Source of the DNA: a virus
Strand: one strand, 5' to 3'
Length of the DNA stretch: 64,000 nt
IMG/VR virus record: IMGVR_UViG_3300045988_111426
Part shown: positions 3,615 to 37,054 of the stretch, one piece after another
How the letters are laid out: each line of letters opens with the position of its first letter
Position numbering within the stretch: position 1 is the stretch's first letter
Notes under the pieces: generated by a model
Seen by the model: the letters and a program-made list of their open reading frames with translations, nothing else
Told to the model about the DNA's origin: nothing
Databases searched by the model: none
Position numbers and translations under genes: made by a program

Positions 3615-3995
3615 CTAATGTCCGATGAACCAATAACCATTGTGTTCGAAGAAACCATCTACAAAAAGATGTTCTCTGAACTTATCATAATCGAAGAAGC
3701 GATAAATCCCCTTCGGATCAGCTCCATCACCGATGTATGAATCGATATAGTGATCGTTCACCATGTCTTCAAACGAAGCTTCATCACATTGATAAACGCT
3801 TTCTGCCTTATCAATGAGTTTATCTGCGAGTTCCTTCTGAATATCGATTTCCATGGCTTCGAATCCTCCTGCTTCCTTTTCGTCGTATTCGAAGTCGATA
3901 TCGATACCACTGACACTGGTATCATATTCGTAATAGGCGATTACTGCTTCGTAAGGAATATGGCAGTTGTCTTTGATATAGTCTCTGATAGTCAT
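3615..3995 (-). CDS. ArdA-like acidic protein paralogue 2
   Basis: 126 aa. 'MTIRDYIKDNCHIPYEAVIAYY..' and C-terminus 'IYRFFDYDKFREHLFVDGFFEHNGYWF'. Closely related to paralogue 1. Confidence 0.55.
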   Translation of the reverse strand: MTIRDYIKDNCHIPYEAVIAYYEYDTSVSGIDIDFEYDEKEAGGFEAMEIDIQKELADKLIDKAESVYQCDEASFEDMVNDHYIDSYIGDGADPKGIYRFFDYDKFREHLFVDGFFEHNGYWFIGH

Positions 3996-4007
3996 TTTTT
4001 CGTATTT

Positions 4008-4343
4008 TTAGAATGATGAGAACACGTAGTTGTCTTTTACTGTGTAGCCACGATCAATGAGCATCTGCTTATACGATTCATAATCGAAGAACTCTCGGAT
4101 GTAGCTGATGTCGCTCATGTTCTTCAACATTGGGATGATGAAAAATCTGTCGACAGTATCTTCGAGGTTTTCTTCAAGACAGAAGAACTCGATATCTGCA
4201 GTTTCGACGAAATATTCCACTTTCTTTTCAAACTGAGAATAATCGTCTTCAAGAGAGAATCCAAATCTGTCACCGAACAACTCGTAAAATTTGAGATACA
4301 TCTTCGATTCGAAGAGACCTTCTAAGTATTCTTTAATTGTCAT
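4008..4343 (-). CDS. ArdA-like acidic protein paralogue 3 (divergent)
   Basis: 111 aa. 'MTIKEYL..' leader and C-terminus 'IREFFDYESYKQMLIDRGYTVKDNYVF'. Confidence 0.4.
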   Translation of the reverse strand: MTIKEYLEGLFESKMYLKFYELFGDRFGFSLEDDYSQFEKKVEYFVETADIEFFCLEENLEDTVDRFFIIPMLKNMSDISYIREFFDYESYKQMLIDRGYTVKDNYVFSSF

Positions 4344-4361
4344 ATTTCTCTTTTCTTCTTA

Positions 4362-4754
4362 TTACCACTCTTCAGCTCTGAAGTGATAACCGTTATCTTC
4401 ATACCAATCACCCATTTCATCAAGCGTATGATAGAAATGTGTCCATGGGTCTTCTTCCCATTTCTCTCTCCATTCTTGGAGTTCTTCATCATCCTCAAGA
4501 TCATCACCATAGCACTCATCGAAGTATCTCAGAGCATCTTCCTTAGAGTTGATTGGATATTCAGCTATGGCACGGTCACGTGCCTGTTCTACGAGTTCTT
4601 CGGTCTCATCTTGAAAGTCTTCATATTCGTCGTTCTCTATATCGAGATCACGAAGATCTTCACCTACGTCGATATCTTCTGTTCCAGCACATGCGATGTA
4701 CGCAAAGACGAGATCTGCGTCGGGTAGCGTCTTGATATATTCTTCTACAGTCAT
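4362..4754 (-). CDS. ArdA-like acidic protein paralogue 4
   Basis: 130 aa. 'MTVEEYIKTLPDADLVFAYIAC' and C-terminus '..DEMGDWYEDNGYHF'. Very acidic. Confidence 0.45.
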   Translation of the reverse strand: MTVEEYIKTLPDADLVFAYIACAGTEDIDVGEDLRDLDIENDEYEDFQDETEELVEQARDRAIAEYPINSKEDALRYFDECYGDDLEDDEELQEWREKWEEDPWTHFYHTLDEMGDWYEDNGYHFRAEEW

Positions 4755-4769
4755 GTTTCTTTTTCTTTT

Positions 4770-5159
4770 TTACATGTTATAAGTGTCCATGAAGTAGTAA
4801 CCATCTTGTTCAAACCAAGGACATATTTCATCAATCGATTGGAAGAACTTAGTCCACGGATCTTTTTCCCATATTGCCTTATATTCTAAGTATTCTGGAT
4901 CGTTGCCACTACCATCACCAACGCAAGTCTTGAGATACTCGTAGATGTCTTCCTCAGTTCTTACTGGATATGGGTACATGCAATTATTGAATGATCCGTA
5001 TATGAGCTTATCGGCTTTATCTTTGACATCTTCGTATTCATCGTTGTCGATATCAATATCCACGGTTTCTTTTCCATACTTCCCATCTTTGACACATTCG
5101 ATATACGCAAAGATGAGACCTGCGTCTTCAAGTGTGTTGATGTATTCTCTTACAGTCAT
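4770..5159 (-). CDS. ArdA-like acidic protein paralogue 5
   Basis: 129 aa. 'MTVREYINTLEDAGLIFAYIEC' and C-terminus '..DEICPWFEQDGYYF'. Confidence 0.45.
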   Translation of the reverse strand: MTVREYINTLEDAGLIFAYIECVKDGKYGKETVDIDIDNDEYEDVKDKADKLIYGSFNNCMYPYPVRTEEDIYEYLKTCVGDGSGNDPEYLEYKAIWEKDPWTKFFQSIDEICPWFEQDGYYFMDTYNM

Positions 5160-5184
5160 TTTCTTATTATTTCTTTATGTTTTA

Positions 5185-5586
5185 TTACCAAGCACCAACC
5201 ACGAAATAATAACCGTTGTATTCAGCCCAGTTATCACTCATCGTATCGAGCAATTGATGGAGCATTCCGAGTGGGTCATCTTCGAATCTCTTTCTTCCTT
5301 CTTGGATATCTACGTCTGGATCATTTTCATGACCATGACAAGTTTCATCGTAGTATCTGAGAATATCTCCTTCGGATGTGATTGGGTAGTCGGTGAGTGC
5401 ACGATCACGAGCTTCTTCTACAAATGCATCGATGTAGTCTTTGACATCTTCGTACTGTTTGTGGAATATGAAAATGTCAAAATCTTCAAATTCCGCACCT
5501 GTGAGATATTCGAAGATGATGCAATTGATATACGCAAAGATGAGATCTTTGTCGGGTAACGATTCGACATATTCTTCTGCGGTCAT
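5185..5586 (-). CDS. ArdA-like acidic protein paralogue 6
   Basis: 133 aa. 'MTAEEYVESLPDKDLIFAYINC' and C-terminus '..MSDNWAEYNGYYF'. Confidence 0.45.
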   Translation of the reverse strand: MTAEEYVESLPDKDLIFAYINCIIFEYLTGAEFEDFDIFIFHKQYEDVKDYIDAFVEEARDRALTDYPITSEGDILRYYDETCHGHENDPDVDIQEGRKRFEDDPLGMLHQLLDTMSDNWAEYNGYYFVVGAW

Positions 5587-5628
5587 ATTTGTTTCTTATT
5601 AAGATTGTTTCTTTATTTGTTGCGGAAG

Positions 5629-6039
5629 CTATCCACGTTCGTAATCTTTTTCCATCATGTAGAAAAAGTAACCGTCGTGTTCGAACATGCCGTCTTCCAC
5701 AAGATCTTCGAAATAGGCGACCATCATTGCGTTTTCGTCACCACCATACATTTGAAGGACATCTTCGTAATCACCTCCTTCTCGGAGAAGTTCGATACAT
5801 CCGTCGTTTTTGACGAACTCTACCATTTCCTCCTCATTAGTGGCGTAACACATGAACGTCGTACGAGCATTCTTGATTATTTCATCGATATGTTTGGAGA
5901 CATCTTCGTATTCCAGTTTCAAGAACTTGTCGACATCTTTAGTTCCGACTTTGTCCTCGTATTGGTGTATCACACAGGCGACATATGCTCGGATGATGTC
6001 TCTGTCTTCGAGTTGATTGATGTATGATTTGATCGTCAT
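5629..6039 (-). CDS. ArdA-like acidic protein paralogue 7
   Basis: 136 aa. 'MTIKSYINQLEDRDIIRAYVAC' and C-terminus '..LVEDGMFEHDGYFF'. Confidence 0.4.
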   Translation of the reverse strand: MTIKSYINQLEDRDIIRAYVACVIHQYEDKVGTKDVDKFLKLEYEDVSKHIDEIIKNARTTFMCYATNEEEMVEFVKNDGCIELLREGGDYEDVLQMYGGDENAMMVAYFEDLVEDGMFEHDGYFFYMMEKDYERG

Positions 6040-6044
6040 TGTCG

Positions 6045-6269
6045 TTATTCTTCAGAGTTTACTTCTTCTGATTCCGATTCTGTTATGGTGTCTATACCAT
6101 CTCTTACGAACTTTTGTATTTTCCCAAAACTGATCGTGTCGTCGTCATCAATGTCAATGGAGAGATCTTTTTCAAACCATCCATTGTTCCGAACATATTT
6201 CAAGATATCAGAAACTGAGATTTTTCCTATAGACTTACAAATGTCTATTATACAATCCTTGATCGTCAT
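6045..6269 (-). CDS. short acidic protein sharing the array's N-terminal leader
   Basis: 74 aa. 'MTIKDCI..' leader and acidic tail 'ESESEEVNSEE'; lacks the C-terminal ArdA-type motif. Late-promoter-like motif at 6299-6312 upstream. Confidence 0.4.
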   Translation of the reverse strand: MTIKDCIIDICKSIGKISVSDILKYVRNNGWFEKDLSIDIDDDDTISFGKIQKFVRDGIDTITESESEEVNSEE

Positions 6270-6298
6270 AATCGTCTTTCAACACCGAGGTATAAAGG

Positions 6299-6312
6299 TT
6301 TCGTTATTTAAA
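6299..6312 (-). promoter_or_regulatory. late-promoter-like motif (TTTAAATAACGAAA)
   Basis: 30 nt upstream of the ATG at 6269, at the head of the acidic-protein array. Confidence 0.4.
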
Positions 6313-6325
6313 AGACGATATGTTT

Positions 6326-6541
6326 TCAGAACGACCACGTGTCGCTACCTTCAGCATTTTCACCTACGCCAATAACTATTGTGGGTTCTGGTTCTGATAT
6401 CTGGAAGTTGTAGTGGATGAGGTTGTCTTTTGATGATCTCGCATCTATGAAGTCCGATATCGAAATCACTAACAATCCGAATATTGCGGTTATTATTATC
6501 GAGATTACGGCTATTACTACGTTTTGCTTTAAATCGTCCAT
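6326..6541 (-). CDS. small single-pass membrane protein
   Basis: 71 aa with hydrophobic segment 'VVIAVISIIITAIFGLLVISI'. Confidence 0.45.
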   Translation of the reverse strand: MDDLKQNVVIAVISIIITAIFGLLVISISDFIDARSSKDNLIHYNFQISEPEPTIVIGVGENAEGSDTWSF

Positions 6542-6566
6542 TTTTCTTGTTAGTATCGTCGTGGTT

Positions 6567-6689
6567 TTACATGAAGAAACTCATGATGACCATAACACAC
6601 GATACAATGAAAACGATCATGGACATGATCAAGATGAGGAAAAGTGATGCACCGATCACTACTAACGTATTTAAGATCTTACGGATCAT
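6567..6689 (-). CDS. 40-aa hydrophobic micro-protein (below ORF-track cutoff)
   Basis: Own translation MIRKILNTLVVIGASLFLILIMSMIVFIVSCVMVIMSFFM*. ATG at 6689..6687. Confidence 0.35.
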   Translation of the reverse strand: MIRKILNTLVVIGASLFLILIMSMIVFIVSCVMVIMSFFM

Positions 6690-9417: not shown

Positions 9418-11007
9418 TTAGATTATCGATTCATCGATTTCCATGACGATGTTGTCAGAGATCATAAACATGATAGCGACTGATATCGAGTTCTCGATAC
9501 AGTTTTTTATGACACGTGCCGAGTCAATGATACCGTCAGAGATCGAGTTGTACGACTTCTGACGTTTCTTGGCATCGTAACCGTATTCGTCGTCTTCCTT
9601 TACAAAGTAGAGGATTGATGATTCTTCTTCCTCTGATATGCACGAGTTGTCCATGATCTTCTTGAACACTGATTCAAGACCTGTTTTCATAATGTGGAAC
9701 GTGTCCAGTGAAGGATCAAGCGCAGAGATTAGTCTTAGGTACGTGATACCACAACCTGCAACTATTCCGTCCTTGTATGCCGATCTGATAGCACAAATCG
9801 CATCTTCAAGTCTGTCCTTGTGTTCATAGACCTCAGATTCAGAATTCCCACCGACCTTAATGACGGCAACTGATGATCTCAAGGTGGCTATTCTCTTCTC
9901 GATCCATTCCTTGTCTTCCTCGTCAGAATCCATCAGAGACTTTAGGTTCGAGATATGCTCTTCGACTGCAGACGATACACTTTCCTTGTCATTTCTGATC
10001 GTCGTGGTGTTTTTATCCACAAAGACGCTTCGACCGCAAGAGAAGTACTCTTCTGTAAACGAAAGAGGGGTGACGGACTGGTCTCCCACCATAAGTGGCT
10101 TCATACCAAGCGAAATGGAGAGGTCAGTGAGATATTCTTCACGCTTCTGTCCATAGTACGGAGGATTGACAAGACAGATGTTCATCTTTCCACTCTGATT
10201 ATTGGCGATCAATGTGGAAAGTGCTTCACCTTCGATGTTTTCCGCAATGATCAGCAGATCACGGACACCTGTACCGTAGATTCTTGAAAGCGCATTGAGC
10301 ATCGTCTTACCATCTTGGATCTTGTGATTTGTGATGAAGATTGCACAATCGTCAGATTCGAACGACATCTTTGACTTATCATTTACGAAATAATGAGACT
10401 GCCAACCACCGTCAAATCGGAATCCAGATTCGATCGAATAGGTTATATCAGAAAGCTGTGATTGTTCAAGAACGATTATCCCATCTTTGCCGATCTTCCC
10501 ATAAATCTCCGAAAGAAGACCTGCAAGTTTCTCATCGTTGTTCGTGGAGATCTTTGCGATATCGAAGACCTGCTGAATATCGACGATCGGTGTGGCAATT
10601 TCTCGAAGCTTTTCAATGAGGACATCCTTCATCTTTTCCATTTCGTGACGAAGTCGGTGAACATCGATCTCGGGATTCTCATTTAGAAGTCCGTCGATGA
10701 GTTTCATCATCGTATACGCCATCACAACAGAAGACGTTGTTCCATCACCTGCATCAACTGCAGTTCGCATTGATGCTTGCTTTACGAGCTGACAACCTAT
10801 GTTGTGCCAATAATTCTGTAGCTTCATCTTTCTTGCTACAGTCACACCGTCTTTAGTGACCTGTGGCACATCGTACGTGTTGTGCTTGATGATGACATTC
10901 CGACCACCAGGTCCCAGAGTAGACCCAACAACGTCGTGGATCGTCTTTGCACCAACGAGGATCAGCTCTCTGGCTTCTGATCCACTTTTTACATCTACAG
11001 CGTTCAT
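9418..11007 (-). CDS. groL: GroEL-type chaperonin
   Basis: 'TLGPGGRNVII', 'VTKDGVTVA' and 'DGTTSSVV' are colinear with GroEL 'TLGPKGRNVV', 'ITKDGVSVA' and 'DGTTTATV'. 529 aa. Confidence 0.9.
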   Translation of the reverse strand: MNAVDVKSGSEARELILVGAKTIHDVVGSTLGPGGRNVIIKHNTYDVPQVTKDGVTVARKMKLQNYWHNIGCQLVKQASMRTAVDAGDGTTSSVVMAYTMMKLIDGLLNENPEIDVHRLRHEMEKMKDVLIEKLREIATPIVDIQQVFDIAKISTNNDEKLAGLLSEIYGKIGKDGIIVLEQSQLSDITYSIESGFRFDGGWQSHYFVNDKSKMSFESDDCAIFITNHKIQDGKTMLNALSRIYGTGVRDLLIIAENIEGEALSTLIANNQSGKMNICLVNPPYYGQKREEYLTDLSISLGMKPLMVGDQSVTPLSFTEEYFSCGRSVFVDKNTTTIRNDKESVSSAVEEHISNLKSLMDSDEEDKEWIEKRIATLRSSVAVIKVGGNSESEVYEHKDRLEDAICAIRSAYKDGIVAGCGITYLRLISALDPSLDTFHIMKTGLESVFKKIMDNSCISEEEESSILYFVKEDDEYGYDAKKRQKSYNSISDGIIDSARVIKNCIENSISVAIMFMISDNIVMEIDESII

Positions 11008-11016
11008 TCAGTCTGT

Positions 11017-11274
11017 TTATCTTACAATGATTAATATTTCGTGTTCCTCTACTACCTTGAACTTATCTCCCTCAATAAGCACCTCAATACCAGAGAATTT
11101 GTTGACGATCACTTTATCCCCAACTTTTACTTCTGTGACACCCATCCCAACATTGGAGACTACGCCTGCAGTCTGGTCTACATCGTTGTGTTGTACCAGC
11201 TCGAAGCCATCGATCTGCTTTTCGACCTCATTGAGCTTTATGAGGATCTTTTTTCCTAAAAGTTTTATTTCCAT
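11017..11274 (-). CDS. groS: GroES-type co-chaperonin
   Basis: 85 aa; 'KILIKL..AGVVSNVG..VKVGDKVIVNKFSGIEVLIEGDKFKVVEEHEILIIV'. Starts 10 nt after... the groL stop lies 10 nt downstream of it (gene order groS then groL in transcription). Confidence 0.8.
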   Translation of the reverse strand: MEIKLLGKKILIKLNEVEKQIDGFELVQHNDVDQTAGVVSNVGMGVTEVKVGDKVIVNKFSGIEVLIEGDKFKVVEEHEILIIVR

Positions 11275-11281
11275 TTCTTTC

Positions 11282-12778
11282 TTAATGTCCGAAGTTATCT
11301 TTTAATATCTGCTTTAAGTGATTAATATCTGCTTTGATTTCTGCCTCTTTGTGTTTTGCTTCTACTCGTTTGTTGAACATGTTCGAGATCATGGTTCGAA
11401 TTGCGGAATCTCTGTTTTTTGAGTAAACTGCACCACTTGATGAATAACACATCGATTCGTCAAGTTCGTGCTGTTCACCCATCTTGTCCACGTAGGTTTT
11501 TCCCTTATCATCGGTATGACCGAGGTAAACATCTTCACCAACGTTCAACATCTGCATAATTGAGGGGAACAGTGATTCGTAGTCATAGATGACAATCCCA
11601 TCATAAACACCAATACCTGGTTGTAAGACGAATCCTGCACTGTAAGTTTCACCTTCGGGAATCTGCTTGTCATAATCCTTTACAAACACTTTGTTGTAAT
11701 GCTTGTAATAGTAGTCACACAAGAGTGTTTCAATCCCTACACTGACGAACATAGACTGTGCAACTTCGACACGTAGAAGATTTGCAAGAACGCTCATTGA
11801 TTCGAATGTTCTACACTTCTTATCGATCAATGCCACGAGGAACGTATCGATGATACCATAAAGCACGTAACGTTCATAGTCCTTCTCATAGAGTTCCATC
11901 AGAGTTTCGGAATGATGGATCTTCTTGACACCAAGGATCTCCGATGCGATAAAGTCGAGTGACATTGATGACTTCTGCTTAATCGATCTATCAAAGAACT
12001 CAAAGATTTGCATGTAGTCGATGATTGGTCGATGAAGAGGAAGTTCGATTTCAATCTTAGATGAATGATCAAACTTGTCTTTCGCAATCGTCGAGTAAAG
12101 CATTCTCTTCGGGGAGAGAATTGTAGGATCAATGTTCGTCTTCTTACATCTGTTGACGAGATATCTTGTATCGAACTTCAAGACGTTCCATCCGAAAATA
12201 CACGGCATCCGTGTTGCGTGATTCTCGACGAAGTCTTTGTTCATTGTGAACTCATCGGGGTAGTAAATGTAACGGAACTTATACCTCTGATGAAGTGTTT
12301 TATCGGTGATTTGTGAAAGATAGTCGTTGATCTTCTGTTCGATAGAGTCGATTTGTGTCTGTGAAAGTGGCTTGATCCCCATGACAGTACCATTCCCGAA
12401 TTCGTCACAATACTGATGCGTGAAGATTCTCCCTACAGGATTTCCAGCATCTGGGAAGTCATCAAAAACTTCCGTTTCGATATCCCAGAAGAACTTACGA
12501 GGTTGATTGTTTGAGAAAATCTTCGCTTGTAAACGTTCTGGTAGAGACAATAAGAACTCGATCTTGCGATATTTGTCGAGATAGGACTTACGTTCCTTTT
12601 TCACAGGGAATCCGTCTTGGGACACGTAAGTCTTATCTCGGAACTTATCATCTTCGGTTGTCTTTGTCCATACGTACTTTTCACGATCATCTATTGTTAT
12701 GTCAGATATCGCAATGTTTCCGTTTTCGTCGAAATAAGACACCGACATCTTGTCTCTGATCTGTTTACAATTGATCAT
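11282..12778 (-). CDS. family-B DNA polymerase, N-terminal half (3'-5' exonuclease plus motif A)
   Basis: ExoI 'FWDIETEV', ExoII 'FGWNVLKFDTRYL', ExoIII 'YGIIDTFLV', motif A 'YDYESLFPSIM'. The ORF stops before motif B. Confidence 0.85.
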   Translation of the reverse strand: MINCKQIRDKMSVSYFDENGNIAISDITIDDREKYVWTKTTEDDKFRDKTYVSQDGFPVKKERKSYLDKYRKIEFLLSLPERLQAKIFSNNQPRKFFWDIETEVFDDFPDAGNPVGRIFTHQYCDEFGNGTVMGIKPLSQTQIDSIEQKINDYLSQITDKTLHQRYKFRYIYYPDEFTMNKDFVENHATRMPCIFGWNVLKFDTRYLVNRCKKTNIDPTILSPKRMLYSTIAKDKFDHSSKIEIELPLHRPIIDYMQIFEFFDRSIKQKSSMSLDFIASEILGVKKIHHSETLMELYEKDYERYVLYGIIDTFLVALIDKKCRTFESMSVLANLLRVEVAQSMFVSVGIETLLCDYYYKHYNKVFVKDYDKQIPEGETYSAGFVLQPGIGVYDGIVIYDYESLFPSIMQMLNVGEDVYLGHTDDKGKTYVDKMGEQHELDESMCYSSSGAVYSKNRDSAIRTMISNMFNKRVEAKHKEAEIKADINHLKQILKDNFGH

Positions 12779-12807
12779 TTTCTCCGTGTTGTTTTTTGTC
12801 CTCTTTC

Positions 12808-13458
12808 TTATCGTCTCCGTCTATACATTCGTTCTATGTTGTCTTGGTGGAACTTTGGAAGAGAATCAAAAAACGCTTCATGGTCTGTTATCTTAAAGTA
12901 TTCGCAATAGATGCAAAAATAGAGCTTATGATCGAAATCGAAATCTATCATTTTCCGATAGACGACATCATAAAGATCAGAACGGTCATTCTTAAAGAAC
13001 GAGTTCATCAGCTTTTCGTATGGCTTCAGATGACTCTTATCTTCACGAGAGAAAGTACAATAATCGTCAGATACAACAACATCACCATTATGAAGTACAA
13101 AGTTTATCATAAATGGTGATGTTTTATCGAGATGACAAACGTTGTCGCCACATCTCACATGATTCATATCGAACGATCGTACGTACGAGAATCGCTTATG
13201 CTTGTTGATGATCGACTGCAATGATGAATAGAACTTTTCACAGAAGTTCTGTCTTGTTCTATATTCATCGGGGTTATAAATGTCATCAAGGAATTGATCT
13301 TGATAATCTTGATCAGCAGAGAAAGAAGTACCACAAGAGTTCTCCTTGTACATGTTACCACCAGTCTTCGACTGCGGTATGAAGAGCACATCCTCCTCCT
13401 GCTGTTCATCTTCTATCTTCGCCTTCGATGAGACATTGTTAGTAGTTGTTTTGTCCAT
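12808..13458 (-). CDS. hypothetical Cys/His-rich protein
   Basis: Start trimmed to the ATG at 13458 (MDKTTTNN), because the longer ORF overlaps the TerL nuclease ORF. Contains 'HVRCGDNVCHLDK' and 'YFCIYCEYF'. Confidence 0.45.
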   Translation of the reverse strand: MDKTTTNNVSSKAKIEDEQQEEDVLFIPQSKTGGNMYKENSCGTSFSADQDYQDQFLDDIYNPDEYRTRQNFCEKFYSSLQSIINKHKRFSYVRSFDMNHVRCGDNVCHLDKTSPFMINFVLHNGDVVVSDDYCTFSREDKSHLKPYEKLMNSFFKNDRSDLYDVVYRKMIDFDFDHKLYFCIYCEYFKITDHEAFFDSLPKFHQDNIERMYRRRR

Positions 13459-13462
13459 ATGT

Positions 13463-14281
13463 TTAATCGTAATAGTCTGATATGTCGAGTTCGTCATTTC
13501 TTTCGGCTTGTTTCCCGAGCTTCTTGTCGACCAGTTTCCAAAACTCGCTTGTGCAATTTTCACTGACAATCTCCACGAGTTCTGACCATTCTTCGATATC
13601 TCGAATGTTTACAACGTTTACACACGTCATAACACAATCGTCATGCCCCGAGCTTGCACGATATGAAGACGATTTTTCTGATCGTGCAAATGTCATAGCT
13701 TCTTGAATAGTCATAAACTCAGTAAGAACAAGCTGATTGTTCTTGAGCTGATCAGAGAATATCTTACAAGAATGTTGCTTTCGGGGTTCTGTTTGATATA
13801 TCCCAACTCTGAAAGTTCGGGCATTATCATCTCGGGCATTATAGAGAAACTTGCAGAATATGACATCTTCGTCGAGTTCATTCTGTTCTCCATAAATGTT
13901 CATTAGTGTGTTTCGGAAGTAGTTCCCTTCAAAGTTGTTCTCGATAACGATCTTCAAATTATCCTGCACCATGTAACCGTTTATGAAATGATACAGCCAA
14001 TTTGCACATTCTGGTGTTTCTACCATGTTCGATCTAAACATGGCGACTTGTACCAACTTGAAGAATGATTCTTCGTCGTTGAAGATCTTCACACCTTCAA
14101 TTTCTAAAGGTGTCATCGGTAGGACTTGGAAGAAGTTGATAATCGTGTAGTCACCACCTTTTCCCTCTGCAATGTCTATCGATAGAACGAATGCGTTGCG
14201 TTCATCTTTAAACCATTGAAGTTCGAATGATGGGTGAATGAAAAAGTACTGGTCGTATTCAAGGAGAACATCTTCAACCAT
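13463..14281 (-). CDS. terL: terminase large subunit, C-terminal nuclease domain (separate ORF)
   Basis: 'VLSIDIAEGKGGDYTIINFFQV' parallels T4 gp17 '[21 protein letters not shown]'. 'SSGHDDCVMTCVN' parallels 'EGYHDDLVMSLV'. Confidence 0.75.
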   Translation of the reverse strand: MVEDVLLEYDQYFFIHPSFELQWFKDERNAFVLSIDIAEGKGGDYTIINFFQVLPMTPLEIEGVKIFNDEESFFKLVQVAMFRSNMVETPECANWLYHFINGYMVQDNLKIVIENNFEGNYFRNTLMNIYGEQNELDEDVIFCKFLYNARDDNARTFRVGIYQTEPRKQHSCKIFSDQLKNNQLVLTEFMTIQEAMTFARSEKSSSYRASSGHDDCVMTCVNVVNIRDIEEWSELVEIVSENCTSEFWKLVDKKLGKQAERNDELDISDYYD

Positions 14282-14338
14282 TCTTCTGCCGTCTATCTTT
14301 TAATTTTTATAAATTAAAAACCTCTACAATTTTCATCA

Positions 14339-15475
14339 CTATAAAGACCCATCTTGGGAGAACACACCATTTACGAACTTCTTCTGATATTTCCCGAGCT
14401 TCTTGAGGACAGCCGTTGAAAGTAGAAGTGTCGATCCGCTCATAAACGAGTTACCATACTCTTGGTTAAAGTCGGCTTCAGAACCAAGGTCGGCAATCTG
14501 ATCAAGTCTCCATTGTTCGTCTCTGCCTTCGACCTCCCACCAGTCTATTCTTATTGGGTTGAAGTTGTTCTTACCATCGAGTGCATCTTGATAAAGCTGA
14601 TAGAACTTGTTCATACCTCTTGCCGTGCTGGTGATGATCATCTTCGACTTCTTACTTGCAGAAAGTGTAGGATAAACTACACGGAAGAACTCGTTGATGA
14701 TGTTTGGTTCAATAAGTGCAAACTCGTCAGCATAAAGGAGGTCGGCAGTTTCACCTGCACCAGAGTTCTCCGTGGCAGTTTCACCGATCAGTTTACAACC
14801 GTTGTCCCATTTCTTCTTGGATACGTTATCGACTTCAATCCCGAGCTTCATATAGAACGGAAGATGCATGAAGATCGAGTTTATCTTGTCAACAAGCTCA
14901 TCAACCTTGTCTGCGTTAGCACTAGTACAAAGAACAGTCTTGTCGTAGTTAGTCAAGATATACCATGCAATGAAAATGCCCGACATTACAGAGTTGTGAG
15001 AAAGTATGCCGTCAGAGAAATATGATAAAGTCTCATCCACGACAGACAGGTCGAACACGATCTGCTGATGAGACTTCTTGAGTGAAGAGACTTTCCGTGC
15101 ACCATCCATTGTCATTAAGATATCACCTAAAGAGAGATCTCGGACTTTCGTAGGTTGATAGCTTTCAAGTGAACTCTTGGAAGAATAGATGAGGTGATTA
15201 ACAGATCCACTGACTGAGTATTCACCTGCACCAACCTCCACGATGTCATGTACGGCTTTCAAATGAACAGAAGAAAGTGGCTTCCAACCGTTTATAGTGA
15301 GTGTTTCGTGGTTATCAAGTACAACTGAATCGATTATTCCGTCATCGTTTATTGGAAATCTCCAAAGTTTGTATCGTATTATTGTGAGGAAGATTATCAG
15401 TTTGTCGAGGATGTATTGCATGAAGTCTTTGAAAAATACAGATGAATGAGGATGCACTTGTTCGTACACCCTCAT
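14339..15475 (-). CDS. terL: Hint/intein domain fused to the terminase ATPase domain, which lacks Walker A
   Basis: Intein blocks 'SGSVNHLIY' (B) and 'VFDLSVVDETLSYFSDGILSHN|S' (F/G). The following 'SVMSGIFIAWYIL...LLYADEFALIEP...MIITSTARGMNKFY' is colinear with gp17 'TTVVAIFLAHFV...MIYIDECAFIPN...IIITTTPNGLNHFY'. No 'RQxGK' P-loop precedes it. Confidence 0.8.
   Translation of the reverse strand: MRVYEQVHPHSSVFFKDFMQYILDKLIIFLTIIRYKLWRFPINDDGIIDSVVLDNHETLTINGWKPLSSVHLKAVHDIVEVGAGEYSVSGSVNHLIYSSKSSLESYQPTKVRDLSLGDILMTMDGARKVSSLKKSHQQIVFDLSVVDETLSYFSDGILSHNSVMSGIFIAWYILTNYDKTVLCTSANADKVDELVDKINSIFMHLPFYMKLGIEVDNVSKKKWDNGCKLIGETATENSGAGETADLLYADEFALIEPNIINEFFRVVYPTLSASKKSKMIITSTARGMNKFYQLYQDALDGKNNFNPIRIDWWEVEGRDEQWRLDQIADLGSEADFNQEYGNSFMSGSTLLLSTAVLKKLGKYQKKFVNGVFSQDGSL
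14993..15328 (-). mobile_element. mini-intein / Hint module (aa ~50-161) at the TerL P-loop site
   Basis: C-terminal 'SHN' followed by a +1 Ser. No endonuclease domain. The N-terminal boundary is uncertain (possible block A 'SVVLDNHETLTINGWKPL'). Confidence 0.6.
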
Positions 15476-15499
15476 TCATCTTATAAATTGTTACCTATC

Positions 15500-16327
15500 T
15501 TATTTTTTGTTGATATCGAACTTTTCAGCGATAACAACGCACGTGGTTCTTAGCGTTTTATTCTCGACGATTAGGAACTTTGTATCTCTGCCCATTGCTT
15601 TCACGAACGCACAATCATAGACGTTTGTCGAGGAAAGATGCTTGAAGAGAATAGCAGGGAAGACAAAATCACCTGTGAATGAACCGTCTGTTGGAATATC
15701 AATGTTCCAACGATCTTCATATGACATAATCGTTGTCTGACCATCTTCAAACTTCACTCTAAACTTCGAGATCTCCTTGACCTTTGCCGATGCCTGTGAT
15801 TCAGAAGCGTACTTCATCAGTTTCTTCACGTCCGTCACGTCATTCTGAGAAAGACCAAAGAATGACAAGCGTTCTGTGCTTTGGAGCAGATTTTCCCAGA
15901 TGTCCTTCTGAAGATACGGAACAAGAGAAATGTCCGCCATTGGCATTCTTGAAGATTTTCTCTTGGATTTCACTTCAAGTTTCACCACAACAAGCGATTC
16001 TCCCTTTTCGTCACACGAAAGATTAATCGAGACCTGCTCATCATCCGTGTAGATTTTCAGAAGTTCGACAAACTTCTTGATTTCGATGAACGGAATCTTG
16101 ATGTGGCTATATTCCGACTTTGAGACAATCTCTTGGCACATGACATCGAAGTCTGATTCTACGACTTTCACGAAGTCACGTGTGATTGTATGACCACGAG
16201 AGACGATCTCATGCTTCCCATCTTCTGTTTTGTAGATATCAATCACCTGCTTCGACTTTATGTCGATGTCGTTGAAGAAGCTGATAAATGCTTCTATGTT
16301 GATGTTCCGAATTGTTACAATGATCAT
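15500..16327 (-). CDS. hypothetical protein (possible sliding-clamp-like)
   Basis: 275 aa within a replication/packaging context. Assignment rests only on size and a two-lobed pattern by eye. Confidence 0.25.
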   Translation of the reverse strand: MIIVTIRNINIEAFISFFNDIDIKSKQVIDIYKTEDGKHEIVSRGHTITRDFVKVVESDFDVMCQEIVSKSEYSHIKIPFIEIKKFVELLKIYTDDEQVSINLSCDEKGESLVVVKLEVKSKRKSSRMPMADISLVPYLQKDIWENLLQSTERLSFFGLSQNDVTDVKKLMKYASESQASAKVKEISKFRVKFEDGQTTIMSYEDRWNIDIPTDGSFTGDFVFPAILFKHLSSTNVYDCAFVKAMGRDTKFLIVENKTLRTTCVVIAEKFDINKK

Positions 16328-18701: not shown

Positions 18702-19973
18702 CTAAAGCTCTATGAACTTCTTGATTTCATCATACTCAATACCGAGAGTTTTTAGAGCTTTCTTGAAGTCGTAGAGTGTCATCGAACTTCCTCTAAACAC
18801 ACGCTTCGATTCTTCATATGCGTCTTCATCTCCCTTCAACTTCAAGTAGAGCTGTACGATTTCAGAGAACACTTGATAATTCTCCTCGAGATCATCTTTT
18901 ATCTTCTCCTCGTTCACCTCGAGCGACTTCAAGCCATTTGCAAACGAAGAGAATCCAAGATAAAGATAAGACAGAGTTTCGGGGATCATTCTTATGACCA
19001 CTGAATCGGAGAGATCACGATGCATTCTTGATTTCGATAACTTATTAATGTAAAACTCGAAGTCTTTCTGACATCTACAGAAGCATCCTTCCGCATTTTC
19101 AAACTTGATGGGGTTGACCTTGTGGGGCATAGCGGAAGATCCACAATAACCTTCGTCTACCTTCAGTTTGAAATAACCATCCGAGCACATTTGCCAAATC
19201 TGTTGAATGTCGCTAATGATTCTTGAAATGGCCAGATTCCAATCAGAGAATCTTTCACAGAACGATTCCCATCTGTCGGTTTGTGTCGCTTCTTCTCCAC
19301 TAATGGTGAACCTGCCGAACTTCTTGACAAACGAATCCATAAGTTCTGCAACTCTCCGAGGATCAATATCGAAAAGTCTCGATATTGCGAAGTTGTTACC
19401 GACAGCACCAGAGAACTTGACAACTGAATAGCCATTTGTACGTTGTCTAAACTTCAAGACATCATACCGCCATTTATAAACGTCATCTTTCAAAAGATGA
19501 GGAACTGCAGATTGTCCATGAGTCTTTGATAGAGACCAAATGCCCCTTGTCTCTCTATGAAGATTTGTGAGGATTCCTTCGACATAGTTTACCGAACGAT
19601 CAATGACTTCCATTGCTTCTTGCATGAGGATAGACATTGACAAGGAAACTATGTCTTGTGAAGTCAGTCCGAAGTGAACATAAACCGAACCCGACGTTTT
19701 TCTTTGTAAGACATTAATAACTGCCTTGACATCGTGCTTGGTTACACTTTCCTCTTCAAGAATCTCGTTGTAGACAGAACTGTCGAACTTGCAGTTTTTT
19801 CTGATGATGTCTTCGTTTACTTCTATGTTTGCTATCTCTTTTAAGAAGTAAAGAAGATATTCGACTTCGACATTCCACATCGTCTTATAGTACCTTTCGG
19901 AATTAAAGACCTTTGACATGTTCTGTATGACATCCGAATACCTGTGATCGAGAGGAGATACGTTCCGTTGCAT
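18702..19973 (-). CDS. purB: adenylosuccinate lyase
   Basis: 'SPLDHRYS', 'HFGLTSQDI' and the fumarate-lyase signature 'GSSAMPHKVNPIKFENAEG'. Start set to the ATG at 19973 (MQRNVSPLD). Confidence 0.85.
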   Translation of the reverse strand: MQRNVSPLDHRYSDVIQNMSKVFNSERYYKTMWNVEVEYLLYFLKEIANIEVNEDIIRKNCKFDSSVYNEILEEESVTKHDVKAVINVLQRKTSGSVYVHFGLTSQDIVSLSMSILMQEAMEVIDRSVNYVEGILTNLHRETRGIWSLSKTHGQSAVPHLLKDDVYKWRYDVLKFRQRTNGYSVVKFSGAVGNNFAISRLFDIDPRRVAELMDSFVKKFGRFTISGEEATQTDRWESFCERFSDWNLAISRIISDIQQIWQMCSDGYFKLKVDEGYCGSSAMPHKVNPIKFENAEGCFCRCQKDFEFYINKLSKSRMHRDLSDSVVIRMIPETLSYLYLGFSSFANGLKSLEVNEEKIKDDLEENYQVFSEIVQLYLKLKGDEDAYEESKRVFRGSSMTLYDFKKALKTLGIEYDEIKKFIEL

Positions 19974-20052
19974 TTTGATTGATTGATTGGGGTGAAAATA
20001 TTCGTCGATATTCCAGAGCACAAGGAAAGTACCTTCCTTAAGCTCGGAGAGC

Positions 20053-20958: not shown

Positions 20959-22380
20959 TTATTCTTCTACAGCGACAAAGTCGTCGGATTCACGACCAGT
21001 CCCCAGTACAGAAAGCACAACCTTCTTATCATCACCCACAAGCTTGTTGATGGTGTCGATTTCTCCGAACATATTCTTGGAGAGCCAATCTTCTACCTTT
21101 GTTGTGATCTTTTCACGTTCTCCGTCCATTTCGCCATCTACCCAGTTGACGAAGTTGATGACAATATGAGTTTTACCATTTGGAGAGAGATTGTAGAGAA
21201 TGCCGTCGTGCAGAAGGCTCTTATCGAACTCGAAGACTCTTCGGGGGAGCTTGGTAAGTGACGTGCATTTTACATCATCTGGAATCGTCTTCCCATAGTT
21301 CTTTTCGACATCTTCCCACGTGATTTCTCGCTGGTGACTTTCTTCGTTCCAGATTGGAGAATAACCAGTACCGCTGAATGATTCGATGACTTCGTATTCA
21401 AGATATGGGAACTCACGCATTTCGTAGAAGTTGATGAATTCCTTACGTGTGACGATAGAAACGTGATCATCTCCTTCGATGAAGTCGAACAGATGCTTAT
21501 GAGCGTAGTACTTGAGCGTCGATTCCGAGTTCTTGTGAAGTCGGACAACTGGCTTCCCACCAATAAGGCGATACTTCTTGTTGTTGATCTTGATCGGATA
21601 AGTTCTACCATTCAAGATAACGTCACCTGCGAAGAATGGAGGAAGATTCATATCATCCAAAGCTGCACTGATCGTCACGTTTCGACTTGTTGAGTTCTGC
21701 TTGTTATAGCCGAGACCATACGAAAGTGGGAAACCTTGACCAATTTGCAGAAGGACTGATCCTCCATTGATCATAAACGTCATAAGACGCTTTTCGACAT
21801 CACAGATGAACTGCTTGAGTTCTGGGACTTGGTAAGCATAAGTCACCGTCTTGTTTCGAACGACCTTCTTTGCACGAACTGCACCAGATCCAGAGCAAGT
21901 AGATCCGCCTGCGATTGTGCCGTCATGATCAGACGACGAGTAGTTACCATCGATATCGCAAAGACCCTTTTCATAGTCTTCATCGATCTTGGTGATGATC
22001 CCTGCCTTGGGGTGGATGAAGAGCTTATCGAGAGGAAGACCGCTCATCTTGATTTCCTCGAAGAGACGTTCAACGGAGAACGACGCACCGTGACCGATAG
22101 CAACGAACTCGAGCTTTTCGTGGAGGTAGGCAGATGAAGGGAGAACTTCAAACATCATCTTCTTGCCGTCATCGTAGACCCAATGCGATGCATTTGCAGA
22201 GTTCGTAGTACAGACTGCAAGACGCTTATCACCAGTGCCGAACGAGGTGTTCTTCACGATCAGAGATTCACATTTGCCCTTGCCAGATGAACCTGCAGAA
22301 TAACCATCCAACAAGAACGTGATCTTTCCCTTTTCGAACATGTGATCAAACATGCCTACTTGATGCTTCTTGGCTTTCAT
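20959..22380 (-). CDS. divergent adenylosuccinate-synthetase-family enzyme (PurA/PurZ-like)
   Basis: Colinear with PurA by eye. P-loop 'GSSGKGK' (PurA GDEGKGK), 'NSANASH' (GGHNAGH), 'GGSTCSGSGA' (GTTGRGIGP), 'LLQIGQGFPLSYG' (MFEGAQGTLLDIDHG). Carries a large insertion before the C-terminal third. Confidence 0.65.
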   Translation of the reverse strand: MKAKKHQVGMFDHMFEKGKITFLLDGYSAGSSGKGKCESLIVKNTSFGTGDKRLAVCTTNSANASHWVYDDGKKMMFEVLPSSAYLHEKLEFVAIGHGASFSVERLFEEIKMSGLPLDKLFIHPKAGIITKIDEDYEKGLCDIDGNYSSSDHDGTIAGGSTCSGSGAVRAKKVVRNKTVTYAYQVPELKQFICDVEKRLMTFMINGGSVLLQIGQGFPLSYGLGYNKQNSTSRNVTISAALDDMNLPPFFAGDVILNGRTYPIKINNKKYRLIGGKPVVRLHKNSESTLKYYAHKHLFDFIEGDDHVSIVTRKEFINFYEMREFPYLEYEVIESFSGTGYSPIWNEESHQREITWEDVEKNYGKTIPDDVKCTSLTKLPRRVFEFDKSLLHDGILYNLSPNGKTHIVINFVNWVDGEMDGEREKITTKVEDWLSKNMFGEIDTINKLVGDDKKVVLSVLGTGRESDDFVAVEE

Positions 22381-35851: not shown

Positions 35852-37054
35852 TTACCAAAGTGGATCGAAAGCGATCAATGAAACAGGCAATGCTTGTACA
35901 CCAATCGAAGTGATTATCTTGTTAAGTGGTGAAAGATAAAGCATTTCGAACTGCTTGGAATAATCGATTGGATAAAGGAACTCATAACAAGGGTCTCCGT
36001 TGACAAATGCGAAGACATCACTTCGGGGATCTGTTGAATAGTAGTATTGAATCTTCATCCCCGATCTGATCTGTTGATATTTGTGTTTATACTTCGACTT
36101 TGTAAGTTCGGCATTATAAACACTCGAAGCTCTGATCTGAATTGTTACCCCCTTGACGTATTCGAAGACACCATCTTTTGCAGTTATCACATATTTCTCA
36201 TAACCATTAACTCTCTGAGAGATTGCAACATCTTCCACGTTTGCACTTTCAAATTTTGATTTTTGCATTTTGACGTGGTCGATGAAATCTCGAAGATTCA
36301 GTTCTCGGTGTTGCAAGATATAGTGAACTGTCTCACGGAGAAGTTCTCGGACAAACTTTGGTGTCGATGACTTGTTAATATCGAGACCTTTGACTTCTAC
36401 GTTTTCAAGTGGCTTGAAATAAACGCCTTCTTCCCAAGAGATATTCTTGATGTACTTCTTCTTCGATGTCCACAAGACGTTGTGGCAGATCATCTCAAAA
36501 GCAAGCTTCATTGAACGTTGTCCATCAATCTTCTGCTGGAATCCGTTGAACTTGCGGATATAACCAACGAGCATATCTTTGACACAATCATTCAGATCGT
36601 TTTCACCAATATCAAAGACGAATTCTTCAAGAGTTCCCTTGTAATCGGTCTTGTCCATGATGTCCTTGTAACGGATAAACACGGAATCTGTGTCGGCATA
36701 GTTCACCGCATTGAAATCGATCGGATCACACTTTGTAATCCCCATCTTTGCATGCAGTTCCCGATGATTTGGGAATCTCTGTTGGAAATACCTATTGAAG
36801 AAGAGAATGGTGTAACGGATCACATGAGAAGATTGCTCAGACACGGATCTTGCAATTTCTCTATCGTAGAGGATAAATGAATGATAACCAAGAACACCAT
36901 AGATTGAGTTGAGAGCAACTTTCGAGACTTTGTTAATTGTTGACTGATAACTTGCTTCTCTCTCAAGTCTGGATATTTCCATCAGAATCTCCTCTTCTGT
37001 GACATTCTGTCCTTTCTTCAAGGATGAGTGGTTAAGTTCTATCTCAAGGATCAT
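35852..37054 (-). CDS. family-B DNA polymerase, C-terminal half (motifs B and C, KKKY, thumb)
   Basis: Motif B 'KVALNSIYGVLG', motif C 'YADTDSVFI', and 'TSKKKYIKN'. Begins with its own ATG. Confidence 0.85.
   Translation of the reverse strand: MILEIELNHSSLKKGQNVTEEEILMEISRLEREASYQSTINKVSKVALNSIYGVLGYHSFILYDREIARSVSEQSSHVIRYTILFFNRYFQQRFPNHRELHAKMGITKCDPIDFNAVNYADTDSVFIRYKDIMDKTDYKGTLEEFVFDIGENDLNDCVKDMLVGYIRKFNGFQQKIDGQRSMKLAFEMICHNVLWTSKKKYIKNISWEEGVYFKPLENVEVKGLDINKSSTPKFVRELLRETVHYILQHRELNLRDFIDHVKMQKSKFESANVEDVAISQRVNGYEKYVITAKDGVFEYVKGVTIQIRASSVYNAELTKSKYKHKYQQIRSGMKIQYYYSTDPRSDVFAFVNGDPCYEFLYPIDYSKQFEMLYLSPLNKIITSIGVQALPVSLIAFDPLW

Follow-up and report, generated by a model that had tools for sequence, protein, structure and literature searches.

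A ~150-kb T4-like phage from human mouth (oral) metagenomes carries three large terminase (terL) genes. Two of them likely encode pieces of one ATPase that are joined by a cysteine-free split intein, and the third encodes the nuclease as a separate product. The gene for the ATPase core, preceded by the C-terminal intein half (IntC; together the C-fragment), and the gene for the nuclease lie side by side in the window, the 64,000-nucleotide stretch of DNA that was analysed. The gene for the N-fragment, which carries the N-terminal intein half (IntN), is found on the same strand about 60 kb downstream, beyond the window. All pieces belong to one genome, as seen in members of the same phage species: the 151,607-bp contig that holds the C-fragment also bears the N-fragment gene (contig identity verified), and in an NCBI TPA genome the N-fragment (DAG97907.1) is co-resident with DAG97900.1 and DAG97901.1, the exact window proteins. 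One of these three entries is currently named 'DNA packaging protein' and the other two 'large terminase protein', and nothing links them to one another.

Three genes for one terminase

The features of the window, all on the minus strand, are as follows.

13463..14281 (-): terL nuclease gene, 272 aa, RNase H-like TerL C-domain (tblastn to TerL C-halves; PDB 3c6a/3cpe)
14147-14182, 13925-13948 and 13628-13651 (-): nuclease motifs with conserved acidic residues (PDB match, motif reading)
14282..14338 (-): intercistronic spacer, 57 nt, with five in-frame stops (sequence reading)
14306-14315 (-): conserved A+T-rich element AATTTATAAA in the spacer (motif)
14339-15475 (-): mechanical ORF, 378 aa, IntC followed by the TerL ATPase
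14339..15421 (-): terL middle gene (IntC plus ATPase core), probable CDS of 360 aa from M19 (ORF, Pfam Terminase_6N, PHROG terminase, strain alignment, dN/dS)
14342..14992 (-): C-extein, Ser162 to the end of the ATPase domain (aligned with T4 gp17 167-365 and PHROG 5989 positions 170-330)
14615-14635 (-): coupling motif ITSTARG, residues 281-287 (motif scan)
14717-14740 (-): Walker B LLYADEFA, residues 246-253 (motif scan)
14993..15421 (-): IntC, residues 19-161, 143 aa, no cysteine (intein profile, AF2 plus Foldseek, invariant residues)
15356..15394 (-): leader motif IFLTIIRYKLWRF ('helix 2'), adjoining the split site (kept in C-fragments down to 41% identity)
15422..15499 (-): 5′ untranslated region of the C-fragment gene, with AATTTATAAG at 15480-15489 (strain alignment, motif)

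The original prediction described the middle gene as an ATPase ORF that contains intein blocks and resumes its extein right after Walker A. Each of these elements was recovered: block B (SGSVNHLIY) at residues 89-97, blocks F/G (VFDLSVVD...DGILSHN) at residues 140-161, the ensuing Ser162, and Walker B downstream of the insertion. The alignment to T4 gp17 begins at gp17 residue 167, the T of SRQLGKT, and residues 166-348 match Pfam Terminase_6N from profile position 15 onward only. The reading frame of 14339-15475 also held, but the start probably lies at M19 (nt 15421), because non-multiple-of-3 indels between strains fall at nt 15475-15421; the first 18 codons of the mechanical ORF are within the untranslated region. 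The gene is flanked by a 275-aa ORF without family match and a MazG gene.

The same prediction stated that the TerL P-loop and N-extein are lacking upstream, and favoured a TerL-N plus short IntN encoded elsewhere. Across all frames of the 64 kb, a regex for RQxGK / GxxxxGK[STC] found no TerL P-loop, an HMM built from 142 TerL N-exteins found no N-extein, and tblastn with four TerL N-termini found no N-fragment; the ORFs that tblastn matched weakly, at 4.6, 46.4 and 61.2 kb, are unrelated, and these matches were rejected. Nor was the N-fragment at the syntenic spot between a PurA-like gene and the C-fragment, an interval occupied by membrane-protein-like ORFs, a PurB-like lyase gene, the MazG gene and unknowns. 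Protein searches with the N-terminal parts from two relatives, LR756500 and P0324, came up without it, probably for want of shared 5-mers. An alignment-based IMG/VR search for it was swamped by intact TerLs, and P0335 was absent from IMG/VR. The genome was walked in six steps toward the gene, which was reached only after synteny with phage L117 (Mre11-Rad50-helicase-SLT-TerL-N) had indicated the correct edge.

The gene found there has the predicted make-up, an ORF ending in a TerL N-domain, RQxGK and an IntN. It encodes 153 aa, of which 114 form an N-extein ending ...NVILASRQIGK and 39 an IntN (SKGWGSVING...KLYSTIYG) whose Ser1 directly follows ...ASRQIGK. The HMM of TerL N-exteins matches it at E~1e-37, and it neighbours a helicase gene and a 207-aa ORF without family match. 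Its boundaries abut those of the C-fragment. In PHROG 5989 the N-fragment ends at profile position 170 and the C-extein begins at 170; in T4 gp17 the two cover residues 72-167 and 167-365. Walker A, RQIGK, is thus carried by the N-fragment and not by the window ORFs. A C-fragment with no partner anywhere, which would have told against a split intein, is not what the 151,607-bp contig and the TPA genome contain.

The intein halves and their predicted chemistry

IntC consists of the leader helix 2, block B SVNH (His94), block F Asp142 and block G His160-Asn161, and would measure 161 aa if the first ATG were used. A profile of 31 homologous leader-plus-IntC regions, the intein profile search that had been proposed, retrieved only inteins from the PDB. 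VidaL (6vgv) was the top match at 8e-18 in sequence and 3.8e-7 by Foldseek, followed in sequence by gp41-1 (2.6e-15) and CatC (6dsl_B; 3e-12), the IntC of a consensus TerL intein of the AceL/GOS-TerL type. The AlphaFold model has a pLDDT of 89.8, and its best 50 Foldseek matches are all inteins or Hint domains. The Hint-fold identity of this region is well above chance. A Pfam scan of the window protein gave no Hint domain call; its relatives do match PF14890.

Within IntC, the roughly 49-aa stretch ahead of the Hint domain contains no P-loop, as had been noted, and is not an N-extein: it belongs to IntC as a conserved leader helix, predicted at residues 10-34 in the AlphaFold model. The idea that the leader motif is a deletion-fused tail of the N-fragment, leaving an IntN of merely 7-12 aa, was dropped because P0324, a contiguous relative at 46% identity, has two successive similar helices, the second of which corresponds to the window leader. 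The segment DSVVLDNHETLTING was also considered as block A with Ser50 as nucleophile; alignment with the intein of Klebsiella phage Magnus places it after block A, in agreement with VidaL alignments that begin at about residue 60, and it is taken as sitting in the hairpin that follows block A.

The residues of a class-1 intein are all present across the two genes: Ser1, block B His, block F Asp, block G His-Asn and a +1 nucleophile. H94, D142 and N161 are invariant in the 31 homologues, and H160 and Ser/Thr at +1 are nearly so. With N-extein plus IntN and IntC plus C-extein encoded as two genes of one genome, the partner gene in hand, its boundaries abutting and the catalytic residues kept, the predicted naturally and atypically split intein is supported. 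After translation, the IntN would dock onto the nearly complete, open Hint fold of IntC, probably aided by the amphipathic helices on either side of the split site. Class-1 trans-splicing would then proceed through an N-O acyl shift at Ser1, transesterification to Ser+1 and cyclisation of Asn161, making a GK-S peptide bond inside the P-loop of a 331-aa ATPase. If the P-loop is completed only in this way, ATP binding would be impossible before both products meet. Against this reading weigh the uncommonness of Ser1/Ser+1 inteins and the weak or absent activity of some split inteins.

Alternatively, the intein halves could serve as a docking module that never splices, with the P-loop completed non-covalently by two polypeptides. 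Ser1/Ser+1 chemistry is rare and generally slower (PMC11766414), and the extra helices could supply affinity without any chemistry. We regard this as unlikely: residues needed for chemistry alone (block B His, block F Asp, His-Asn and +1 Ser/Thr) vary little or not at all even between deeply diverged homologues, Cys or Ser is kept at position 1 of N-fragments, and an unexcised 182-aa Hint domain within Walker A would probably leave the ATP site obstructed.

Atypically split TerL inteins are already known. AceL-, GOS- and Cat-TerL are naturally split phage TerL inteins with an IntN of 25-37 aa and an IntC of 104-115 aa, and AceL-TerL has its optimum at 8 °C (PMC11766414). 'Fractured genes' (Dassa et al. 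2009) are phage genes, terminase among them, that a break inside the intein has turned into two; by definition both halves stay at the original place and in the original orientation, with a homing-endonuclease gene between them (PMC2677866). The kind of system described here is therefore not new. Like AceL- and GOS-TerL, the intein is split near its N-terminus, and through the CatC consensus it resembles them in sequence; the comparison covers fragment lengths, nucleophiles and CatC. Its 143-aa IntC is longer than theirs because of a leader helix of ~25-35 aa at the N-terminus, and its IntN has a matching C-terminal helix. AceL uses Cys1/Cys+1 and GOS Ser1/Cys+1, whereas the window phage combines Ser1 with Ser+1, and its intein is entirely free of cysteine. 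AceL and GOS come from Antarctic or marine water, the window phage from a human-associated setting at 37 °C. In contrast to fractured genes, its intein halves lie ~60 kb apart and neither is flanked by an endonuclease gene.

Other inteins share single traits. VidaL, which we take to be an atypically split, cysteine-free intein residing in UvsX rather than TerL and having an IntN of about 16 aa, is without the two split-site helices. The Magnus intein (Vi01-like; annotated as a 159-aa contiguous mini-intein) is likewise inserted after RQxGK, and its residues ~38-159 align with window residues 41-160; Magnus TerL, however, is a single polypeptide with Cys1/Thr+1 and a fused nuclease. The cyanobacterial DnaE split intein joins by trans-splicing the halves of an essential enzyme encoded at distant loci, as are the halves in the window phage, but it is cellular and split at the canonical site, with a long IntN and an IntC of ~36 aa, while the window intein is viral. 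The unusual traits here are the distant loci, Ser1/Ser+1 without cysteine, the two split-site helices and a nuclease detached across a whole clade.

A nuclease on its own cistron

The nuclease was correctly predicted to be a separate ORF in the same frame as the ATPase ORF, parted from it by TAG-TGA-TGA..TAG..TAA, a 57-nt spacer in which all three kinds of stop occur. The 272-aa cistron matches TerL C-halves as well as the RB49/T4 gp17 nuclease structures (E=6e-7). Its acidic-residue motifs are SIDIAEG, IENN and HDD, and by reading, SIDIAEGKGGDY, VIENNFEG and SGHDDCVM would be the counterparts of the catalytic acidic residues of T4 gp17. Summed over the pieces, the phage has the gp17 inventory of YQ adenine motif with Walker A, Walker B, coupling motif and RNase H-like nuclease. 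T4 gp17, however, is one chain with an ATPase-nuclease hinge, whereas here there are three gene products, with ATPase and nuclease on independent cistrons and not on one polypeptide as in the T4 type.

Could ATPase and nuclease still be joined in cis, by RNA splicing, frameshift, bypass or read-through, leaving TerL in two pieces? The two ORFs share a frame and are merely 57 nt apart, and the terL of gut jumbo phages is split by group I introns (PMC12880540). An alternative genetic code reading through the spacer was dropped because all three stop codons occur in it, and the five stops speak against joining in cis. Spacer length varies between strains by non-multiples of 3. An Rfam search of the spacer found no family, intron or ribozyme, and no group I or II intron would come near to fitting into 57 nt. 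Between them, the ORFs cover the entire interdomain linker of contiguous homologues. Separate nuclease ORFs occur in relatives (identities of 79% and 42%), among them L111 and L116; in L116 a 1-nt gap parts the nuclease ORF from the ATPase ORF and their frames differ, while L113 and L115 have no nuclease within 10 kb. ATPase-only C-fragments of 345-379 aa are kept from 95% down to 41% identity. Joining in cis is accordingly quite improbable.

The favoured reading is that the nuclease is translated apart and would join the motor non-covalently. Isolated ATPase and nuclease domains of T4, when mixed, reportedly do not package DNA, so that a nuclease on its own would have to rely on contacts that compensate.

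Less probable even than joining in cis is that the window ORFs are a decaying remnant beside a complete, functional terL elsewhere. Strong purifying selection acts on all pieces (dN/dS 0.015-0.11), the IntC value being 0.05-0.11, that of the ATPase about 0.016 and that of the nuclease 0.025-0.05. Relatives as distant as 41% identity retain this architecture, and 61-111 near-identical copies lie on independent 144-152-kb assemblies. An uninterrupted terL elsewhere in the genome had been named as the finding that would overturn the prediction; tblastn with full TerL and T4 gp17 detected only the three pieces and no second terL, in a search that spans about 128 of ~150 kb. That the split is an artefact of assembly or gene calling is hardly credible, metagenomic origin of the DNA notwithstanding, as many assemblies made independently, by different projects and with different assemblers (Logan, ENA, JGI/IMG-VR and NCBI TPA), show the identical arrangement.

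A family of split terminases and its implications

The phage has many relatives. N-fragments of 160-200 aa with GK, Cys/Ser and an IntN form more than 100 clusters at 50% identity, and matching C-fragments exist; by these sequences, split TerL inteins are a large and diverse family. P0324 has the same intein in contiguous form, with helix 1, linker and helix 2 located where split forms break. In LR756500, N-fragment, endonuclease-like ORF (a weak DUF559/Vsr-like match) and C-fragment are adjacent, exactly the layout of a fractured gene, and in another phage 9 kb of opposite-strand genes lie between the intein halves. All evolutionary stages are represented: contiguous, endonuclease-fractured, separated by a 9-kb island and dispersed over 60 kb.

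For the T4-like clade as a whole (C-fragment identity 41-95%), we lean towards a motor of three polypeptides, with a trans-spliced P-loop, a free headful nuclease and a helix 'zipper'. One intein half would be encoded in the replication module and the other near structural genes. In annotation terms, this bears on three terL pieces that databases currently leave unconnected. In biotechnology, a cysteine-free Ser1/Ser+1 split intein with a short IntN may serve as a ligation tool at 37 °C and under oxidising conditions, complementing AceL-TerL. If they act as proposed, the two amphipathic helices beside the split site would be a natural 'zipper' for fragment capture.

For the packaging motor, a P-loop formed solely through trans-splicing would act as a built-in activity switch, and the packaging ATPase would be gated by the meeting of differently placed, possibly differently timed products. 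The headful nuclease, in turn, would be a free subunit without the covalent hinge that underlies current T4-type translocation models. Conserved and under purifying selection, this detached nuclease offers a natural way to ask if the motor mechanism needs an ATPase-nuclease hinge.

A terL ATPase behind half an intein

14339-15475, minus strand: C-fragment ORF, 378 aa
residues 246-253 of the C-fragment ORF: Walker B, LLYADEFA
residues 281-287 of the C-fragment ORF: coupling motif, ITSTARG

TerL homology in the C-fragment ORF begins only beyond the Walker A Lys: the Pfam Terminase_6N match (residues 166-348) starts at profile position 15, and the T4 gp17 alignment starts at gp17 residue 167, the Thr of Walker A SRQLGKT. 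The original description of an ATPase ORF that has Walker B and lacks a P-loop and an upstream N-extein is borne out; the 64-kb window as a whole encodes neither a TerL N-terminus nor a TerL P-loop. The coding sequence is most likely 14339-15421, starting at Met19, because nine strain-level relatives carry 1-2 nt indels versus the window in the stretch from the first ATG (15475) to the Met19 ATG (15421), and several database entries in the same 90% cluster are given as 360 aa. Frame is preserved 3′ of Met19 in those nine relatives. Given this start, IntC is most likely 143 aa.

The residues preceding Ser162 form the C-terminal portion of an intein, in agreement with the Hint domain first proposed ahead of the ATPase. 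Among 31 aligned leader and IntC regions, only three columns are invariant, His94 (block B), Asp142 (block F) and the terminal Asn161; His160 is nearly so, and Ser or Thr always follows Asn161. The profile of this alignment matched inteins exclusively in the PDB (VidaL, 8e-18; gp41-1, 2.6e-15; CatC, the IntC of the consensus AceL/GOS-TerL intein, 3e-12). The AlphaFold model (mean pLDDT 89.8) retrieved inteins or Hint domains in 50 of the 50 top Foldseek places. A predicted helix bearing the family-conserved motif IFLTIIRYKLWRF spans the first ∼35 residues, a leader that CatC lacks. Neither IntN nor IntC contains cysteine. Among phage records the closest is LR756500 (462 kb), collinear with the window protein from residue 57 at 38% identity; window residues 41-160 align with the 159-aa mini-intein annotated at the P-loop in Klebsiella phage Magnus.

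The partner gene and the origin of the split

Short proteins in which TerL-N is followed by GK, Cys and an IntN of 45-70 aa are common (60+ clusters at 90% identity, >100 at 50%). The window phage's own N-fragment was absent among proteins retrieved with the LR756500 N-fragment as query, so the genome was walked through same-species contigs from IMG/VR and ENA/JGI. Upstream of the gene for P0335, a related N-fragment, are Mre11, Rad50, a DEAD helicase and an SLT protein. In the window phage the walk came to Mre11, Rad50 and a helicase, and the N-fragment gene turned up one step further. Thus, the predicted partner, an ORF combining TerL-N, RQxGK and a short IntN encoded elsewhere, was located as a 153-aa gene (MAKKVVENM...YYRHNVILASRQIGK/SKGWGSVINGLEGDFKISDLFPRTLINRLRSKLYSTIYG, then stop; N-extein HMM E∼1e-37).

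125,474-125,935 of the IMGVR_UViG_3300045988_115354 contig, same strand as the C-fragment: N-fragment
64,730-65,824 of the same contig, same strand as the N-fragment: C-fragment

The contig carrying the N-fragment is the same molecule as that record (0 mismatches in 11,218 bp), which places the N-fragment ∼60 kb downstream of the C-fragment, roughly 45 kb past window position 1. The N-fragment belongs to a cluster of 87 members, on contigs of 144-152 kb. Proteins identical to those of the window are encoded on human oral metagenome contigs of 144-152 kb and by NCBI TPA genomes with the label ‘Ackermannviridae sp.’; cluster member DAG97907.1 is on a 150,200-bp contig, a length listed also for the exact window proteins DAG97900.1 and DAG97901.1 (longest contig). 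The N-fragment lies outside the window and is linked to it by identical proteins that co-occur on contigs and in a TPA genome. In alignment the two fragments abut precisely: the N-fragment ends and the C-extein starts at position 170 of PHROG 5989, and they cover T4 gp17 residues 72-167 and 167-365, respectively.

The same intein occurs in one piece in contiguous relatives of ∼770-930 aa, in which block A is followed by an amphipathic helix (consensus L.FLEKIKY.LYK.Y), a short linker, a similar second helix (...LIFFRYKLWKY) and the remaining Hint fold. One such protein, P0324 (823 aa), shares 46% identity with the window protein, starting at the second helix. The break in split forms is in the linker: helix 1 closes the N-fragment and helix 2 opens the C-fragment. 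In LR756500 an ORF with a sub-threshold DUF559/Vsr-like match lies between the TerL halves, the same layout as the ‘fractured gene’ of Dassa et al. 2009 (PMC2677866), where terminase is among the listed hosts; in another phage, 9 kb and 18 opposite-strand genes separate them. In relatives at 73%, 54%, 49% and 41% identity, no N-fragment lies in the 10 kb 5′ of the C-fragment, and dispersal of the halves in the window clade is therefore old.

By substitution pattern, the terL pieces show no sign of decay. In comparisons with two strains, IntC has a dN/dS of 0.05-0.11, the ATPase 0.015-0.017 and the nuclease 0.025-0.05; across four strains the N-extein has one amino-acid difference and IntN several substitutions.

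Several side observations concern these loci. At the locus carrying the N-fragment gene (L138), a strong inverted repeat followed by a T-run (TGTCGGAGGTATC...GGTATCTCCGACA, 12215-12265) separates that gene from a 207-aa ORF. It resembles an intrinsic terminator, and terL-N may therefore be transcribed on its own. A 362-aa acidic protein encoded 2.6 kb downstream of terL-N (L138 15353-16441), without Pfam or PHROG match, is homologous to a 377-aa protein directly preceding the TerL C-fragment in a relative (L113); its position suggests a small terminase. Near-identical TerL N-exteins carry unrelated IntN in P0335, P0336 and P0337 (one Cys-initiated, two Ser-initiated), which points to the replacement of intein alleles at a fixed site. 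In LR756500, the split TerL is directly followed by a 270-aa TerL-ATPase-like ORF (5844-6656) whose Walker A is degenerate (SSRQMGIS) and which lacks a nuclease; it may represent a paralogue or remnant.

A detached nuclease gene

13463-14281, minus strand: nuclease ORF, 272 aa

The nuclease ORF matches C-terminal TerL halves of Flavobacterium phage MaF61, Tenacibaculum phage PTm1 and several huge uncultured phages, as well as structures of the RB49/T4 gp17 nuclease domain (E=6e-7), with conserved acidic residues in SIDIAEGKGGDY, VIENNFEG and SGHDDCVM. As first described, it is a separate same-frame ORF behind multiple stops, five of them (TAG, TGA, TGA, TAG, TAA) in a 57-nt spacer. C-fragments terminating at the ATPase end (345-379 aa) form a clade from 95% down to 41% identity; the nuclease is still fused in more distant split TerLs (620-658 aa). 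It follows the ATPase ORF immediately in the window, L111 (79% identical) and L116.

Rejoining of the two ORFs by recoding or RNA splicing would fit their common frame in the window but is unlikely: the spacer differs between strains by non-multiples of 3 (a core A+T-rich element is retained), an Rfam scan of it gave no match, and the two ORFs together wholly cover the interdomain linker of a contiguous homologue. Moreover, the L116 nuclease ORF (42% identical) is set off from the ATPase ORF by a 1-nt gap and uses another frame, and none was found within 10 kb in L113 or L115. Gene layout thus points to clean fission at the hinge.

In L115 (the relative at 41% identity; 1-102 and 11025-15985), a ribonucleotide reductase carries an intein, and two DUF7487 endonuclease-like genes lie directly 3′ of the ATPase-only fragment. 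The element AATTTATAAR occurs only twice in 64 kb, at window 14306-14315 and 15480-15489 (minus strand), each just upstream of a terL cistron (expected count 0.36; two reached in 8/100 shuffles), and AATATAAAG lies ∼20 nt before the N-fragment ATG; such elements may act as a promoter common to these genes, perhaps of the T4-late kind.

Genome setting, known systems and a proposed mechanism

20959-22380: PurA-like gene, upstream of terL
18702-20021: PurB-like gene, upstream of terL

The phage also carries a T4-type portal, a gp32-like protein and a GroEL/GroES pair; this pair, which adjoins the PolB N-part, and a second, weak Cpn10-like ORF are at window 9418-11274 and 193-564. Family B DNA polymerase is likewise in two genes ∼23 kb apart (11282-12778 and 35852-37054, minus strand). 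Its 498-aa N-part, the same size in relatives at 49-73% identity, holds the exonuclease domain and the beginning of the polymerase domain, and the 400-aa part holds KxxxNSxYG and YADTDS; no intein motifs were found at either part's end. A run of ∼126-136-aa ORFs (3615-6039, minus strand) includes at least two clear paralogues (MTVEEYIKTLPDADLVFAYI... and MTVREYINTLEDAGLIFAYI...). Elsewhere, a RecA/UvsX-like protein (L106 14432-16204) has 591 aa, much longer than typical UvsX, with the RecA match confined to residues 32-127, and repeated ∼150-nt non-coding units with a tRNA-like translation signature lie near contig position ∼110 kb (L123-L126, ∼18.8-20.4 kb).

Atypically split TerL inteins are already established (PMC11766414), and fractured terminase genes were reported in 2009 (PMC2677866). 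AceL-TerL (25/104 aa, optimum 8 °C) is Cys1/Cys+1 and GOS-TerL (37/115 aa) Ser1/Cys+1; Cat-TerL is an engineered intein (PMC11766414). In contrast, the intein of this phage is Ser1/Ser+1 and cysteine-free. Our literature search found no report of this chemistry, of paired helices at a split site, of ∼60-kb separation without a flanking endonuclease, of a human-oral source or of clade-wide nuclease detachment; the ‘split terL’ papers found concern solely group I introns in gut jumbo phages (PMC12880540).

In the mechanism we propose, IntN would dock onto the open Hint fold of IntC, possibly assisted by the two helices. Class-1 trans-splicing by Ser1, His94, Asp142, His160/Asn161 and Ser+1 would then form the GK-S bond of Walker A and yield a 331-aa ATPase, with which the 272-aa nuclease would associate non-covalently at the portal.
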